Virus record (IMG/VR): IMGVR_UViG_3300027902_000008
Span: 1 to 64,000 of that record
Direction: 5' to 3' (one strand)
DNA from: a virus
DNA length: 64,000 nt
Every line of letters begins with the position of its first letter. The first letter of the stretch is position 1. Positions 24,182 to 36,075 of the stretch are shown in pieces. Below the pieces are notes generated by a model. The model made no database searches, was not told the DNA's origin, and was given only the letters and a program-made list of their open reading frames with translations. The position numbers and the translations under genes were made by a program.

Positions 24182-25243
24182 ATGAATATCATAGATTCGG
24201 TTAATAGCCATATAGAACATAGTTGGGAAGGATTGGATTTTCTTATCAGGGATAAGTCTAATTTTCACGCCAGAGATGTAAGTGTTGTATTTAAAAGTAA
24301 GTTTGCTAAAGATGAAACAGACCTTCGTAAATTGCATAATCTTGCCACAGAAAAGGTAGAGGGAAAATGTCTAAGAGCCTTATTTTATGACTTTCAAAAA
24401 CAGGTGGTAACTAATCCTACGGAATCTTCAGGGATTAGAACTATGGATATAGGAAACGCCTGTGAAGATATGGAAAGAGATTATTATAAGAGCTTGGGCA
24501 TATTCCAATCTGCTCATATCAGAATGTTCAATAAGGATTACCTCATATCAGGAGAAGTTGATAATCTTATTTGGGAATATGAGGATATCCTCCTTCCAGA
24601 CGGACACTTAAGCGGTAGAGTAAAAATCTGTGAACCAAGAAGATTGATAGGCGTAGAAGTAAAGTCTTTCTGGGGTTATTACGCAGAGAAAGAAATATTG
24701 GTTAATGGTATTCCTAAGTGGAATCACGTCCTTCAGGCACTAATCTACTTAGACCACTACAAACCAAACATACCATATTGGCTGTTAGTATATCTTAGCA
24801 GGGGTGGCGGAGTAGATACCCCTAATGGCAGAATGTTTGGCAGGCAATTCAAGTTGCAAATAAGCAAGTTAACAGGAGAGATATTTATAGATGGTATGAT
24901 TGTCAAGGAGTTTAAAATAGAAGACGTGTATGGCAGGTTTAAGAAAGCCCAATTCTTAATTGAGAATAATAAGTTGCCAGATAGGGATTATGTGTATAAC
25001 TACCCTAAAGATTTGGTTGAACTTAAATACAAGAAAGGAGAAATAGGCAAAAGTGCTTACGGAGATTGGCAGAATGGGAACAAGTATATCAGCGATTGGC
25101 AATGCTCGTATTGTGGGTATCTGTATCAATGTTGGAAGGATGTATTTGGAAATACAGTAAGAGGAGCACCTAAAGAGGTTTTAGGTGTAGAAACTAAAAT
25201 GGAGGCAACGGATTCCACAGATAGTGGAGTTCCGAAAGGATAG
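24182..25243 (+). CDS. Cas4-like PD-(D/E)xK exonuclease
   Basis: N-terminal Cys (KCLR), SGEVD, EVKS, QALIY and C-terminal CSYCGYLYQC Fe-S motif. Confidence 0.75.
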   Translation: MNIIDSVNSHIEHSWEGLDFLIRDKSNFHARDVSVVFKSKFAKDETDLRKLHNLATEKVEGKCLRALFYDFQKQVVTNPTESSGIRTMDIGNACEDMERDYYKSLGIFQSAHIRMFNKDYLISGEVDNLIWEYEDILLPDGHLSGRVKICEPRRLIGVEVKSFWGYYAEKEILVNGIPKWNHVLQALIYLDHYKPNIPYWLLVYLSRGGGVDTPNGRMFGRQFKLQISKLTGEIFIDGMIVKEFKIEDVYGRFKKAQFLIENNKLPDRDYVYNYPKDLVELKYKKGEIGKSAYGDWQNGNKYISDWQCSYCGYLYQCWKDVFGNTVRGAPKEVLGVETKMEATDSTDSGVPKG

Positions 25244-25640: not shown

Positions 25641-25893
25641 GTGAAGATATGTCTATAAATGGACATTTTAGTTGGAAATGGAGCAAGAAAAGTAAGAAAA
25701 AAGTAACTGGCAGAAAAATGAGTAAAGATATGAAGATAAAGATTGGCAAGGCTCTCAAGGGTAAAAAGTATTACAAGGAAGAAGTTATTAAGAAACCAAT
25801 GCCAATTTTAATTTAGGGGGTGATATGATGAAGGTTTCAATAATTGGAGTCAAGGCAGATAAAGTCAATAGAAGACTACGAAGGAGGGTTAGA

Positions 25894-27165
25894 ATGGCTG
25901 AAGTTAAGGAAGAAAATATCAATGTGAGTATCAACGGAAATGTTTTACCACAGGAGTTTAATGTATTTGATATTGTGAGCAGGTTTAAAAAGCATTTTGA
26001 CGAAGTGGAAAAGCACTTTGTTGAGAGGAAAAATGAATTAGAGCAGATTAAGTATGCAATGCTTATCAAAGAACACGTTTTACTTAAAGGAAAGACAGGA
26101 ACGGCAAAGAGCAAACTTGGTAAATATTGCTTTAACTTTATCAAGGGAGCAAAAACATTTGCTATTCAATTAAGCAAGTTTATGTCAGAGGAGTATCTTT
26201 TTGGTGCTATTGATATTACCAAAATGAGAAACGAAGGTAAGGTTGAGCACATAACTACCGATAGCATAATAGATTGCGAGTTTGCCTTTATTGATGAAGT
26301 GTTTGATGGGAATGACGCTTTATTGCGTTCTCTTTTGGAAGTGCTTAATGAAAGGAAGTTCACAAGGCATACCCAAAGATTAGACGCAAAGTTGCATACT
26401 GCGATACTTACCTCTAATTATGTCAGGGAAGATGAAGCGACTGAAGCCTTTCTTGACAGGATTATGTTTAAATCAGATGTAAAGCCAGTAACAAGCAATA
26501 AAAACAGAATGAATATGTATCATACCTTTGTTAAGCACGGAGATAAGGGACATATTCAATTAGGAAAGATTCTTGATGGTAAAGCAGTAACATATGAAGA
26601 GTTAGTTAGCCTTGCTAACTTTATATTGAGTGATGCTGTTGAGTTGCCTGAGCCAGTTCTCAAGCTTTATGATTTGATTTTGAGGGAGTATTCAAAGCAA
26701 CTTAGTTGTTATATCTCTGACAGGAAAGCAAATAAGATGCTCAATATGTTGAAGGCTTCTGCTGTTATGAATGGAAGGAAGAGGGCTAACTTTGATGATA
26801 TTGAGTCTGTTAAGTTTGCTTTAGTAACCTTGAATAATGACCAACAGGAAGAAGTATTTAGGGCAGTATTTACAAAGCTGATGTCTGATAATGTAAAGTA
26901 TGAAGGAGTAGTAAATGAGATGGGAGAACTTGAAAAGATATTTAATGTTCTTCTTAAGAGTTCAGACCAAAAGTTAAATCCTAAATCAAAGGAAATCCTT
27001 GAGTTAAATGAGGAAGCCCAACTTTTTGAACAGAAAATACTTCAACATAACTTCTGTAATGGAACTGGGTTTAAAGATACTGATGTGAAATTTAGTGAAA
27101 TAAGGCAGGGAACTGATAGGATAATCAGGGAGATTGCCAAAACCTTAAAACTACAAAATAAGTAG
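25894..27165 (+). CDS. MoxR/RavA-family AAA+ ATPase
   Basis: HVLLKGKTGTAKS Walker A, AFIDEVF Walker B, LLEVLNER, AFLDR, ISDR. Confidence 0.9.
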   Translation: MAEVKEENINVSINGNVLPQEFNVFDIVSRFKKHFDEVEKHFVERKNELEQIKYAMLIKEHVLLKGKTGTAKSKLGKYCFNFIKGAKTFAIQLSKFMSEEYLFGAIDITKMRNEGKVEHITTDSIIDCEFAFIDEVFDGNDALLRSLLEVLNERKFTRHTQRLDAKLHTAILTSNYVREDEATEAFLDRIMFKSDVKPVTSNKNRMNMYHTFVKHGDKGHIQLGKILDGKAVTYEELVSLANFILSDAVELPEPVLKLYDLILREYSKQLSCYISDRKANKMLNMLKASAVMNGRKRANFDDIESVKFALVTLNNDQQEEVFRAVFTKLMSDNVKYEGVVNEMGELEKIFNVLLKSSDQKLNPKSKEILELNEEAQLFEQKILQHNFCNGTGFKDTDVKFSEIRQGTDRIIREIAKTLKLQNK

Positions 27166-27173
27166 GAGGCGAA

Positions 27174-28523
27174 ATGAGGACAATTGTAACTCCTCTTTCA
27201 AAAGAAGAGAAAAAAGCAATCAAGGAAATGGCTGCAAACTCTAAGCTTTCTGATAGGGTAGATATTGTAGAGGATATCTACGGCTTTATGAAACAACCAG
27301 AAATGATAGAGGAAGCTGACATTACAGAAGAGTTAATAGATGAGTTTGTAAATGGTAAGTTTGAATATTATATTCCTATGAAACAAAAGGTAAAGGGCAG
27401 GATAGACTTCTTTAATAGGATAATGAATCATTCTTATTATGGAAAGTTTAGAGACCTTAATCCAGATGAGGGTGCTTGTATTCTATTGGATATGTTGAAT
27501 GCCTTTTATAAAGAGAAGAAAGAGCAGGAGAAAGACGGAGGGGGGAAGGGTTCTCACGATGAAGCAATGAGGGAATTTGAGGACATAATCCGCTATGGCA
27601 GGGAACTCTTTGATTTGCTTGATGACCCTTGGTTCAGAAAACTTATGGAACAACCTGAATCTGGATGCGGTAGTGGTCAAGATAAGAAACCAGACCAACT
27701 TCCTCAAATGGTTAAAAATATGGTTGCAGGTATGGGTAATGTTATCCATATGTATGAGTTATCAAAGAGATTGGAATTTACCATAAGGGCAAGCAAAAAG
27801 GGAAAATGGAATGAAGTTCCTTTCCCAGATAACGGTATGGATATCAGCCGTATGAAAAAGATAAGGGACATTACTCAATTACTTCCTTCTCAATTAGCTC
27901 TTGATGATGATGTCTTCCTTAAGAAGTTGCTGAGCAAAGAACTACTCAAAAAGAAGTATATGCAAAGACAGGAAAAACGGCAGATACTTTATATGATTGT
28001 AGATAGCAGTGGCAGTATGTCTGATAACGTATTAAAGAATATGATGAAAATAGATGTATGCAAGTCTGTAACTATAGCATTGATGAAAAAGATGATAGAG
28101 AATGAAGATTTCTTCTATTTTAGATGGTTTACAACAGGAGTAAGTCCTTTGCATAAGATTAAAACTAAAGAAGAGGCAATGGACTTTTTGCCAAAATTAG
28201 TTTATGGGCAGAATGCAGATGGAGGAACTAATATACAAAATGCAATAAGGGTTGCTACTGAAGATTTGAAAAGTAAGCAACTTGAACATTGGGATTTGGC
28301 TGATATTCTCTTGGTAAGCGATGGAATTGCTGTTGTTAATGTAGAGGAATGTAATAAGATGCTTGAAGGAATAGATATGCACACTATTATGATTACACAC
28401 GAAAAGCTGGATAAGAACAATGAATTTCATAGTAATATGATTCAGATGTCAAAAAACTTTATGATGACTAACTGTTATGATGAAACAGACGTTGTGGAGA
28501 TAGCAAATATTTTTACTAAATAG
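27174..28523 (+). CDS. VWA-domain protein (ViaA-like partner)
   Basis: MIDAS motif DSSGSM, GGTNI, LVSDG; adjacent to the MoxR ATPase. Confidence 0.88.
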   Translation: MRTIVTPLSKEEKKAIKEMAANSKLSDRVDIVEDIYGFMKQPEMIEEADITEELIDEFVNGKFEYYIPMKQKVKGRIDFFNRIMNHSYYGKFRDLNPDEGACILLDMLNAFYKEKKEQEKDGGGKGSHDEAMREFEDIIRYGRELFDLLDDPWFRKLMEQPESGCGSGQDKKPDQLPQMVKNMVAGMGNVIHMYELSKRLEFTIRASKKGKWNEVPFPDNGMDISRMKKIRDITQLLPSQLALDDDVFLKKLLSKELLKKKYMQRQEKRQILYMIVDSSGSMSDNVLKNMMKIDVCKSVTIALMKKMIENEDFFYFRWFTTGVSPLHKIKTKEEAMDFLPKLVYGQNADGGTNIQNAIRVATEDLKSKQLEHWDLADILLVSDGIAVVNVEECNKMLEGIDMHTIMITHEKLDKNNEFHSNMIQMSKNFMMTNCYDETDVVEIANIFTK

Positions 28524-32890: not shown

Positions 32891-33207
32891 TTTAATTAGC
32901 ACTCTATTTCAGAGAAGGGCAGGAAACTTTAAGAACTACATCATAATGAAAGCCACGGATTCCTGCCCTTACTAATTTTAGGAGGTTAATATGGTGAAGC
33001 CAAATGAGAAATTCCATTCCTGTGATTGTGATATGAGATATATCAGAGAAGGAGATAGCACTGAAACCATCAAGGCATTCTTTCAGGCACATCCTTTTAT
33101 GCTTGGTTTTTTAACTGGATTTATTTTTAAGAAAGGAACGGATACTTTTGCAAAGATTCTCCAAGAAGTTGCAGAAGAAAATTATAGAAAGAAAGGAGGC
33201 TGGGGTA

Positions 33208-33690
33208 ATGCCAATAGGAGTGTATAAGAGAACCAAAAAGCATTTAGCGAGATTAAAGAAGCAAATATTGAAATATAGTTTTTCAAAAAGTGGTAGAAAA
33301 CTATCTTTTACTTCTCGCAAGAAACAAGCTAAAACTATGTTGGGACATACAGTTTCAATAGCCACCCGTAATAAAATCAGAAGAAAGCTTCTTTTGAAAG
33401 ATGGAACAAGAAGAATCTATAATGGTTATGTTAATGTGTATGACTCTAAGCATCCAAGAAGGAGAAGGGTGTTTGAACATCATCTTATCATAGAGAAATA
33501 TATTAGAAGATTAATAAGGAAAGGTGAGGAAGGGCATCATATAAATGGCATTAAAACAGATAACCGTCCTCAAAATTTGATGTTATTTCGCAATAAAAGT
33601 GCACATACAAGGTTTGAAAATAAATTATTATTAAAGAAATCACCGATTAAGAAGTCAGATATTATATTTGATGGAAGGCTATTGCCTTAA
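33208..33690 (+). CDS. HNH homing endonuclease
   Basis: MPIGVYKRT, FEHHLI...HHINGIKTDNRPQNL; paralogue of 29604..30011. Confidence 0.85.
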   Translation: MPIGVYKRTKKHLARLKKQILKYSFSKSGRKLSFTSRKKQAKTMLGHTVSIATRNKIRRKLLLKDGTRRIYNGYVNVYDSKHPRRRRVFEHHLIIEKYIRRLIRKGEEGHHINGIKTDNRPQNLMLFRNKSAHTRFENKLLLKKSPIKKSDIIFDGRLLP

Positions 33691-33744
33691 AAAGTATCCA
33701 ATGAGAATTATGGTAATCCCAAAGGATGGGGAAGGAGATAGTAG

Positions 33745-33879
33745 GTTAGATTCTGTTCAGTTAGATTATGTTTTGGTAGATTAAATTGAGTTACTTTTAA
33801 TTTCTTTGTGTTGAATTCTGTTATTTTGTTTTGTGTTGAGTTTAGTTAAGTTGCGTTACGTTGTATTAAATAAAGTTGG
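33745..33879 (+). repeat. Pentamer array 1, 27 x DTT-NN
   Basis: gttag attct gttca gttag attat gtttt ggtag attaa attga gttac ... gttgg; period of exactly 5 with no indels. Confidence 0.9.
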
Positions 33880-33910
33880 AGAAAGGGCAGGTGATAGATT
33901 ATGTAAATAT

Positions 33911-34045
33911 GTTGAGTTAATTTAAGTTGGTTTCGGTTGGATTAGGTTAAGTTAATTTCGGTCAAGTTAATTTCAGTTCAGCTTTGTTGTGTTAGCTTAA
34001 TTTCTTTTTGGTTCTGTTAAGCTAATTTTGGTTGGGTTGTGTTAT
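33911..34045 (+). repeat. Pentamer array 2, 27 x DTT-NN
   Basis: gttga gttaa tttaa gttgg tttcg gttgg attag gttaa ... gttgt gttat; ends just before the RBS of the RAMP-like gene. Confidence 0.9.
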
Positions 34046-34064
34046 ATCTAAAGGGAGGATACAA

Positions 34065-34682
34065 ATGGTGAAGCAAAGTCCAGTAAAGGCAGTTGTTTTA
34101 AATGCAATAGATGTAAAATCTTTCAAGGTTTCAGTTGAAGGTATGACTCCATTTATCTCTCATAAATTTAGTGAGAGAAATATGAATCAAATGGAGGAGA
34201 AGCAAAGAAAGGAAAATACAAAAGAAAGGAAAGCGAGAATATCTATTGAAGATGAAGTTGCGGATTGTATTCATCGCTTAGATAACGGAAAAGTAGGTTA
34301 TCCTACTGATGCTTTTTATAATGGTATGCGTGAAGTAGCTCCATATCTTACTAATATGGATAAAAAACTTGTTCAGGGTTCAGTTAAGGTTTCTGGTTCA
34401 GACGGTTGTCCGTTAGTAGAGATTAAACACTCTAAACAGGTAACACAAAAAGATTTTGTTAAACTATCATCTGGCGTTGCTGATGTTAGATATAGACCGA
34501 GATTTGAGGGATGGAGTTGTGAACTTTTCATTAGATACAACGCTGCCCAAATTTCTCCTGAACAGATTATCACCCTTATAAATCTGGCTGGATTTCATAG
34601 AGGAATAGGAGACCATAGACCAGGTTCCCCAAAAAAGCCAGGAGATAACGGGATGTATAGAGTAAAAGAAACTGTAAAATAG
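34065..34682 (+). CDS. RAMP/Cas7-like protein associated with the pentamer arrays
   Basis: GGGAGG RBS before ATG 34065. N-terminal strand VSVEGMTPFISH, helix YPTDAFYNGM, thumb-like VRYRPRFEGWSCEL and C-terminal Gly-rich loop AGFHRGIGDHRP...GDNGMYRV match the RAMP layout. Fold inferred, not searched. Confidence 0.65.
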   Translation: MVKQSPVKAVVLNAIDVKSFKVSVEGMTPFISHKFSERNMNQMEEKQRKENTKERKARISIEDEVADCIHRLDNGKVGYPTDAFYNGMREVAPYLTNMDKKLVQGSVKVSGSDGCPLVEIKHSKQVTQKDFVKLSSGVADVRYRPRFEGWSCELFIRYNAAQISPEQIITLINLAGFHRGIGDHRPGSPKKPGDNGMYRVKETVK

Positions 34683-34697
34683 GCAACTGAATTTTTG

Positions 34698-34847
34698 TTT
34701 ACATTAGGTTTTGTTCGGTTCTGTTGCTTTTGGTTGGTTTCAGTTCCATTATTTTCATTTAAGTTTTGTTGTTTTAAGTTCTGTTGGGTTGAGTTACGTT
34801 TTGTTTCGTTGGGTTACGTTCATTTCATTTGGGTTTTTTTGGGTTAA
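34698..34847 (+). repeat. Pentamer array 3, 30 x DTT-NN
   Basis: tttac attag gtttt gttcg gttct gttgc ttttg gttgg ... tttgg gttaa; all 30 units have TT at positions 2-3. Confidence 0.92.
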
Positions 34848-34849
34848 GT

Positions 34850-34886
34850 GGGCAAGGGTTCAGAGATGGACTCTTGCCCTGTTTTT
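34850..34886 (+). terminator. Hairpin plus U-tract at the 3' end of array 3
   Basis: GGGCAAGGGTTC-AGAGAT-GGACTCTTGCCC 12-bp stem (2 G-U pairs) followed by TGTTTTT. Confidence 0.7.
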
Positions 34887-34906
34887 AAGTTTTTAAGGAG
34901 GTATAA

Positions 34907-35404
34907 ATGGTAAAATATAAGGCAAGAGAAGGTTCAATATTTAATGACGAACAGGCAAATATCTATGGTAAATGTGTTGAAAAGATAGAGCAGGAAAAAG
35001 GGTCTGTTAAGCCTTTAGATGTTGTTGAGGAAGGGGAAAAGACAGAATCTCCTTTACACGAATACTTTGATTGGGATGATAAATCTGCTGCTGACAAACA
35101 TAGATTACAACAAGCGAGGTATTTGCTTAATCATTTGATAGTTGAGATTACGATTGAAGGTAAATCTAAAGACCAAAATGCTTTTTTCAGCGTAGATATT
35201 GATATAGAGGGTGGTAATAAAGGTTATCTGTCTTTAGGAAAAGCTTTATCTATTCCAATATACAGAGAGCAGGTTTTGGATGTTGCTTTGCGTGAATTGC
35301 AATATTGGCAAGATAAGTATAAAGACCTTAAAGAATTAAGCCTTATATTTATAGCGATTAGGAAGATGAGACAGAAGATAAATAAGAAAAAAGGAAAGCC
35401 ATAA
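34907..35404 (+). CDS. Partner protein of the RAMP-like gene (unknown function)
   Basis: AGGAGG RBS; motif SPLHEYFDWDDKSAADKHRLQQARYLL; sandwiched between arrays 3 and 4. Confidence 0.65.
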   Translation: MVKYKAREGSIFNDEQANIYGKCVEKIEQEKGSVKPLDVVEEGEKTESPLHEYFDWDDKSAADKHRLQQARYLLNHLIVEITIEGKSKDQNAFFSVDIDIEGGNKGYLSLGKALSIPIYREQVLDVALRELQYWQDKYKDLKELSLIFIAIRKMRQKINKKKGKP

Positions 35405-35412
35405 TTTTGTAA

Positions 35413-35507
35413 GTTAGGTTGAGTCGTATTACGTTGGGTTTTGTTTGTATGTGTTGGTTTTGGTTATATTTAGTTCTGTTTTGTTGTGTTGGGTTTCGTT
35501 CGGTTAT
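35413..35507 (+). repeat. Pentamer array 4, 19 x DTT-NN
   Basis: gttag gttga gtcgt attac gttgg gtttt gtttg tatgt ... gttcg gttat. Confidence 0.88.
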
Positions 35508-35712
35508 TTAATGAAGAAATGACAGGGAGGAAAAATGAAGTTCAAAAGAGAGTTTTTAATAAGTATTAAGGCAGAAGCGAAAACAGAATTTGGAATCCAG
35601 ATGATAGAAGAATCAATTTCTGTAATGTTAAACGCTTGGGTATTACATCATCGTAAAGCAAGAGGAAAATCTTCTATTATAAAATTCAATATGATAAAAA
35701 AGGAATGTTAAG

Positions 35713-36075
35713 ATGAGCTGCAAATTCAAAGACCCACAAGGCTATTGCGAACAAACCAACGGAGGTGGTTCTATAAAGTGCAAGGATAGAAGGCACTATT
35801 GCAATGAGGAGATAGATGTGCATACTTTAAAGGGTGAATGGCTAACAAGAAGGGTCTGGCTTGATGGTAAAGAACTATTCCCAGAGAGAAGCCAGAAGGT
35901 CAGAAACCATAGCCCAGATGGCTTTAATTGGAGTTACAACGGTTCTGGACCAGCCCAGTTAGCATTGGCTATTATGCTTGAATGCACAGGCAAAGCAGAA
36001 GGCTATCAAGACTTCAAATGGAAGACAATAGCCACTTTACCAAGAGCAGATTTTGAGATAGAATTTGAGTTATAG
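35713..36075 (+). CDS. Conserved hypothetical (DUF6166-like)
   Basis: RNHSPDGFNWSYNGSGPAQLALAIM motif. Confidence 0.65.
   Translation: MSCKFKDPQGYCEQTNGGGSIKCKDRRHYCNEEIDVHTLKGEWLTRRVWLDGKELFPERSQKVRNHSPDGFNWSYNGSGPAQLALAIMLECTGKAEGYQDFKWKTIATLPRADFEIEFEL

Follow-up and report, generated by a model that had tools for sequence, protein, structure and literature searches.

A probable VIPR locus with arrays of G-U-U-N-N guides in an uncultured phage

Introduction

VIPR systems, reported in April 2026, are phage-encoded and consist of a minimal RAMP protein (Vipr), an accessory gene (vap) and guide RNAs known as vrRNAs (10.64898/2026.04.26.720920). Here we describe what is very probably a phage-borne VIPR system of this kind, made up of a vipr gene, a vap-type gene and four arrays of G-U-U-N-N guides, in the first 64 kb (hereafter the window) of IMG/VR record IMGVR_UViG_3300027902_000008, a single 92,940-bp contig from an uncultured phage that is classed as a virus record. 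An initial annotation of the window had proposed a non-CRISPR RNA-guided system at this position and likened it to phage 'VIPR' systems with GGY-NN repeats, which are indeed published (10.64898/2026.04.26.720920 and 10.64898/2026.04.26.720927).

In the systems described so far, a vrRNA comprises 9-16 YNNGG repeats plus a structured 3' tail. Double-stranded DNA is read by the NN pairs, with one base skipped per unit, and binding silences transcription in competing phages and satellites; the arrays of Escherichia phage SUSP1 were shown to be transcribed and bound. Seven VIPR types were distinguished, "all" of them with GGY/NN "or a related consensus", and the alternatives named are NNNGG, YNNNG and NNNNG. 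Array architecture differs among the types, and self-targets were absent in the discovery paper's own systems (all 10.64898/2026.04.26.720920). In the cryo-electron microscopy structure of the SUSP1 system, H17 and D177 read the first scaffold base (G1), R138 and W178 sandwich G2, and the pocket for the third base (Y3) includes C173 and R179 (10.64898/2026.04.26.720927). The VIPR papers treat the G-G-Y scaffold as invariant. Given that the published vrRNA caller models GG[C/T]NN alone (10.64898/2026.10.15.759431), arrays like those of the window would be missed by it. Our literature search found no paper that pairs vrRNA with GUU.

Results

The 205-amino-acid open reading frame at 34065..34682 is, judging from its sequence, a Vipr protein, that is, a minimal single-RRM RAMP with a G-loop and a thumb. 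The only solved structure that it matches by sequence is PDB 36pp_D, "SUSP1 Vipr protein" (E 8.4e-6), in an alignment spanning the thumb and the G-loop, and a full-length alignment to the Vipr of phage SUSP2 gives 24% identity (E 2e-10). Among the PHROGs it matches phrog_4652 (E 6e-18), and Pfam has no model for it. An AlphaFold (AF2) model made from 13 homologues has a mean pLDDT of 85. When it is compared with the PDB by Foldseek, every top-ranking structure is a Csm3/Cas7 backbone subunit (E about 1e-6, probability 1.00, TM about 0.5), in keeping with the RAMP/Cas7-like identity that the initial annotation had assigned to this gene. Four of the five scaffold-gripping residues of SUSP1 (H17, R138, D177, W178, R179) are kept, as H33, R144, D183 and R185, whereas W178 is replaced by His184. 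At the C173 site of SUSP1 the window protein has Arg179.

Four arrays (A1 to A4) lie on the + strand together with this gene, in the order A1, a 31-nucleotide spacer, A2, the 205-amino-acid open reading frame, A3, a hairpin with a T run, a 165-amino-acid open reading frame and A4, as follows.

33148-33690, + strand: HNH endonuclease gene, the upstream border of the locus
33745..33879, + strand: array A1, vrRNA-type, 27 D-T-T-N-N units, 25/27 of them xTTxx, in a single register
33880..33910, + strand: 31-nucleotide spacer between A1 and A2, a purine-rich Shine-Dalgarno-like run and then ATG-TAA (a start-stop mini-open reading frame)
33911..34045, + strand: array A2, vrRNA-type, 27 units, 24/27 xTTxx
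34065..34682, + strand: vipr, 205-amino-acid minimal RAMP with the G-loop GIGDHRPG, assigned from sequence and fold matches
34693..34847, + strand: array A3, vrRNA-type, 31 units, 31/31 xTTxx
34850..34886, + strand: GC-rich 13-bp hairpin and T run, -24 kcal/mol, z -4.1
34907..35404, + strand: vap-type accessory gene, 165 amino acids, with homology to phrog_15946 and Quico gp58
35413..35507, + strand: array A4, vrRNA-type, 19 units, 17/19 xTTxx
35713-36075, + strand: DUF6166 gene, the downstream border of the locus

No internal register shift occurs in any of the four arrays, and 97/104 units read xTTxx in register. Position 1 is G in 67 units, T in 23, A in 13 and C in 1; T stands at position 2 in 100/104 units (G in 1/104) and at position 3 in 101/104. 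The information content is 1.7-1.8 bit at positions 2-3, and only 0.05 and 0.08 bit at the near-uniform positions 4-5. Per 135 nucleotides, there are 4.2 +/- 1.9 in-register xTTxx units elsewhere in the window versus up to 26 in the arrays, and scanning all 92,940 bp of the genome revealed no further comparable tract, just two weak stretches of 60-80 nucleotides. One of these two weak period-5 signals outside the locus is explained by a tRNA gene (52987-53058, Rfam 46 bit). Tandem Repeats Finder reported the arrays at periods 15, 20 and 25, multiples of 5, with one period-19 row (6% indels) over A4. These results agree closely with the initial annotation, which had described four tracts in an exact 5-nucleotide register without indels, a fixed TT core, G>T/A at position 1, freely varying positions 4-5, a strong hairpin at the end of array 3, and the two open reading frames of 205 and 165 amino acids. 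It was one unit off in its counts: A3 has 31 units, not 30, and the TT core is found in 97/104 units, not 96/103.

Vipr homologues turned up, in pattern and tblastn searches, at 4 viral, 80 metagenomic and 6 genomic loci, from which we assembled a comparative set of 87 (the first 84 loci, SUSP2, Mycobacterium phage Quico and the window; the six genomic loci were left out). A period-5 scan detected arrays in 73/87 loci, always on the vipr strand, so the phased flanks that the initial annotation had proposed to look for in homologues are widespread. The commonest scaffold is G-G-C/T-NN, SUSP2 reading ggT-NN and Quico GGc-NN. The window shares g-T-T-NN with its two closest relatives, L005 (Ga0307376_10075844, 59% identity over the whole protein) and L018 (Ga0315289_10027000, 85% over the available C-terminal part), and the clade next out, at 38-44% identity (L006, L007, L013, L016), has GGT-NN. 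Between the window, L005 and L018 the NN series are no more alike than shuffles, and GTT and the register are kept. A fixed scaffold whose guide content changes fast would be expected to look like this. Neutral drift of the NN positions with frequent indels, which the initial annotation had named as a result that would speak against it, was not seen in these relatives; the VIPR variant with a TT core that it had suggested is borne out by the constant trinucleotide G-T-T of all three loci.

The locus L005 is laid out like the published vrRNAs, in a GTT version with four runs of 13-23 GTT-NN units. All four guides sit after vap (L005:1918-2381), and each carries a conserved 3' tail, GGCTCTATCGCC. 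When one copy of the full tail GGCTCTATCGCC was folded, it gave a small 7-pair hairpin whose loop has 6 nucleotides. The second guide of L005 has a variant tail, GTCTCTATCGCC, which did not fold, and the complementary GGCGATAG lies directly upstream of the first guide.

Other scaffolds occur among the related loci. A few loci rich in AT (about 30% GC) carry arrays of the form G-T-NNN, clearly so in L034, L040 and L050 and also in L021 and L049; these arrays probably represent the YNNNG class of the discovery paper. In these loci H17 is changed to D, D177 to S/A and R138 to S/T, all lost together, which fits a putative loss of G1 recognition. Arrays reading A-c-A-NN, with no G in the scaffold, are present on the vipr strand in 19-21 loci of a gut/rumen Vipr clade (L061-L084). 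The Vipr proteins of this clade have the G-loop GIGSGR, in which the equivalents of D177 and W178 are both replaced, and their arrays are mostly located between the vap-type gene and vipr. The third scaffold base, Y3, tracks GC content (about 0.60 in GGC loci and 0.43 in GGT loci). Given that GTT and GGT loci are similar in GC (0.41 vs 0.43), AT drift is not enough to account for the change of G2 to U.

The GTT scaffold is not confined to the window's clade. When IMG/VR was scanned for runs of seven GTTNN units, most matches were microsatellites. Hypervariable GTT-NN arrays adjoining five additional, divergent vipr genes (L102, L140, L160, L167, L174) were also among the matches. A tree built from 81 Vipr proteins requires at least three changes of the GTT label on its well-supported branches (four in the best tree), and one GTT pair clusters with SUSP2. 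The residue at the W178 site is not W in 5/7 GTT loci (H, N, N, L, L) versus 4/34 GG loci; L018 has N at this site. The link between loss of W178 and the GTT scaffold is, however, suggestive only. Arginine at the C173 site is found in the window, L005 and most close database homologues, and the other GTT lineages are without it. The IMG/VR scan also returned hypervariable GTT-NN arrays in L100, L112 and L148, with no Vipr homologue within the fetched stretch; these could be solo guides, or vipr could lie outside the fetched locus.

The 165-amino-acid product of the vap-type gene matches phrog_15946 (E 7e-18) and Quico gp58 (32% identity, E 6e-16), whose gene lies directly 3' of that for the Quico Vipr homologue, gp57. 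A family profile search placed a member of this accessory family next to vipr in 65/87 related loci. Its AF2 model has a pLDDT of 94. Foldseek against the PDB gave nothing at E <= 0.001 with this model, a VIA-wide fold search gave generic helical-hairpin matches alone (Z <= 5.3), an ESM Atlas search gave unnamed viral clusters only, and Pfam has no family for the protein. Sequence comparison with SUSP2 Vap1 showed no relationship. Prediction of a Vipr-Vap complex scored 0.00, which gives no call either way.

Within the locus, A2 adjoins the ribosome-binding site of vipr, its 3' end lying 19 nucleotides from the vipr start, and folding of the spacer between A1 and A2 gave no stable structure (z +1.0). 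The stem-loop proper after A3 occupies 34850-34879 with the T run directly after it. It has the shape of an intrinsic terminator and is probably the 3' end of an A1-A2-vipr-A3 transcript. A purine run of the GGG(C)A(A)GG type lies at most 25 nucleotides 3' of each of the four arrays, and three of these runs are the ribosome-binding site of the next gene.

The context of the locus is viral: vipr, vap, the HNH gene and neighbouring genes have matches among the PHROGs. No public sequencing run, RNA runs included, is listed as containing this DNA. Since the HNH gene, a 58-amino-acid open reading frame, the DUF6166 gene and a methyltransferase gene are not conserved as neighbours across the related loci, the module appears to consist of vipr, the vap-type gene and the arrays. 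The HNH gene was considered as a nuclease-type vap and rejected, as it is missing from all related loci. No CRISPR array was found in the 64 kb, where Rfam yields only tRNA and Tandem Repeats Finder no CRISPR-like period, and none of the neighbours (HNH endonuclease, methyltransferase, DUF6166 protein, MoxR-VWA pair) is a cas gene for Cas5, large or small subunits, Cas6 or Cas1-Cas2. At 33500-35800 no Rfam family, the hammerhead included, was found at E <= 1. Some 9 kb upstream, a 353-amino-acid open reading frame (24182-25243) without a Pfam family matches phrog_1706, 'CRISPR/Cas system associated' (E 1.5e-14), and is followed by genes for a MoxR AAA+ ATPase (25825-27165) and a VWA protein (27174-28523).

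Exact patterns made from the guides were also searched for in IMG/VR. Two 9-unit segments of A3 had 0 matches, and 8-unit segments had 6 matches for A4, 79 for A1 and 51 for A2. The units flanking the 8-unit matches agree at chance level (on average about 26% for A1 and A2, and 3-7/22 guide bases in the six A4 matches), and no 8-unit seed extends by more than two units.

Discussion

VIPR itself is already known, and the locus described here is a genuine member of the family. The match to SUSP1 Vipr, the Csm3/Cas7 fold and the phased arrays of homologues support what had been proposed from the window alone, namely a non-CRISPR RNA-guided system in which a RAMP grips a constant trinucleotide and displays NN. 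In this scenario, the four arrays would encode guide RNAs of G-U-U-N-N pentamers, and, if the homologous SUSP1 structure is a guide, each pentamer would be bound by one Vipr protomer. The protomers may assemble into a helical filament in which the constant trinucleotide is buried and the NN pairs are exposed, and these pairs could then read a gapped DNA target of the form NN-x-NN-x, with one skipped base per unit. The result would be silenced transcription of a competing mobile element.

Several results weigh against this view of the locus. Position 1 is G in just 64% of the units, and the arrays have 19-31 units compared with 9-16 repeats in SUSP1 vrRNAs. The four 3' flanks show no common structured tail such as those of SUSP1 and L005; A3 alone has a hairpin, and it is terminator-like. 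A scan for sigma-70-like promoters found none adjoining the arrays. When the phage's own genome was searched for targets of the four arrays (skip 0-3, 10 and 14 units), scores equalled those of shuffled guides, and the same search in 1.5 Mb of related loci stayed at chance level. The lack of self-targets agrees with what the discovery paper reported for its own systems (10.64898/2026.04.26.720920). As for the G-loop, L005 and L140 have GTT arrays yet keep the tryptophan, and the association between the residue at the W178 site and the type of scaffold is not significant once relatedness is allowed for; only 3-4 independent contrasts are available, so that a sign test cannot reach significance.

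It is worth considering whether the system is the same but the register is shifted, such that the conserved G corresponds to G2 and the first U to Y3, with three bases displayed, the first of them a U by chance. The window would then belong to the YNNNG class and involve no new scaffold recognition. The scaffold departs from the GGY consensus, and TTNNG does match the string YNNNG among the paper's alternative repeats, though only in the shifted register; furthermore, clear G-T-N-N-N arrays exist in the related L034, L040 and L050. However, the window keeps the two residues that read G1 as well as the arginine of the thumb, all three of which are lost in the loci with GT-NNN arrays, and T is conserved to the same degree at position 3 as at position 2 (101 vs 100 of 104), which is not the behaviour of a displayed guide base. 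Because H33, R144, D183 and R185 are kept in the window and the equivalents of H17, D177 and R138 were lost in the G-T-NNN loci, the comparison of sequences favours G1-U2-U3-N4-N5 as the unit register, and we consider the shifted one improbable. Read as G1-U2-U3-N4-N5, the scaffold is a variant outside the repeat forms named in the text of the papers, their supplementary logos not being covered by this comparison.

Two further explanations do without working guides. The locus might be a decaying or inactive VIPR relic, in which GGT drifted to GTT under the AT pressure of a 36% GC phage and the arrays are no longer loaded, as the AT-rich genome, the degenerate position 1 and the lack of both a conserved tail and a target in our searches could indicate. 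We regard this as very unlikely, given TT in 97/104 units with zero indels, two intact open reading frames with conserved key residues, and a GTT scaffold that L005 and L018 keep despite full turnover of NN and that recurs beside divergent intact vipr genes; GGT loci, moreover, are found at the same GC. The T-rich, phased tracts might instead act as DNA, through phased T-T bending or as iterons or a replication or packaging signal, with the RAMP gene there by coincidence. There is hardly any room for this possibility when period-5 arrays accompany Vipr homologues in 73/87 loci of unrelated genomes, always on the vipr strand, when just four such tracts exist in 93 kb, all of them around vipr and vap, and when the equivalent SUSP1 tracts are transcribed and bound (10.64898/2026.04.26.720920). 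A VIPR system with G-U-U-N-N guides thus remains our preferred interpretation.

From the perspective of VIPR evolution, the G-U-U scaffold is well kept and recurs with at least four lineages of Vipr, which suggests that the three constant bases can themselves evolve. It also points to residues of the G-loop as possible determinants of specificity, and suggests that natural orthogonal VIPR variants may exist. A stronger form of this idea, which we put forward tentatively and think rather less probable than not, is that G-U-U is a distinct functional scaffold 'dialect' that originated at least three times from G-G-Y via changes in the G-loop (the tryptophan stacked on G2 being lost and, in the window's clade, Arg standing at the C173 site) and is orthogonal, so that each such Vipr loads its own GUU guides only. 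If true, a GUU system would resist the decoy or solo vrRNAs by which satellites and rival phages hijack GGY-type VIPRs, and a second programmable DNA-binding system without cross-talk would be at hand. The finding leaves the basic picture of VIPR unchanged, and its relevance lies in the arms races between phages and between phages and satellites, and in the prospect of several independent programmable DNA binders.

With regard to known systems, the window resembles the type III and type VII CRISPR-Cas systems in the RAMP fold that its Vipr shares with Csm3/Cas7 (9g9b_E, 8do6_E). Sequence identity to these proteins is 9-16%, and unlike those systems the locus has no CRISPR array or other cas genes, its RAMP has no second domain elaborations, and the VIPR step is 5 rather than 6 nucleotides.

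The Type II VIPR of Escherichia phage SUSP1/SUSP2 (PDB 36pp; 10.64898/2026.04.26.720920, 10.64898/2026.04.26.720927, 10.64898/2026.10.15.759431) is likewise a phage-borne, two-gene operon. Both systems have a single-RRM RAMP of roughly 200 amino acids with a G-x-G-D-x-R-P G-loop and the equivalents of H17, R138, D177 and R179, and in both, arrays on the two sides of the genes consist of 5-nucleotide units in which three bases are constant and NN is hypervariable. SUSP1/SUSP2 comprise Vipr, Vap1 and four vrRNAs; the window's accessory protein is unrelated to SUSP2 Vap1. The window also differs in its scaffold (G-U-U, not G-G-Y), in the changes of W178 to His and C173 to Arg, in a protein identity of about 24%, in its longer arrays (19-31 units vs 9-16), one of which lies between vipr and vap, and in having no conserved pseudoknot tail.

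Closer in its accessory gene is the Cheoctovirus Quico, where gp57, a Vipr homologue with 29% identity (E 6e-20), is followed by gp58, which belongs to the accessory family seen in the window, and the genes have period-5 arrays on their flanks. Unlike the window, Quico has GGc-NN arrays, a locus of 61% GC and a G-loop that keeps W. In this cultured phage (L086, 37686-38755 plus flanks) there are four GGc-NN arrays with 63 units in total, and the VIPR-like genes, annotated as hypothetical, adjoin the region of Cro, an antirepressor and Xis. The closest likeness is to L005 and L018. The guides of L005 are all after vap and tailed, and its G-loop W is kept, unlike in the window, and the NN content of the window is unrelated to that of either locus; what the three have in common is the same accessory gene and the same GTT-NN scaffold.

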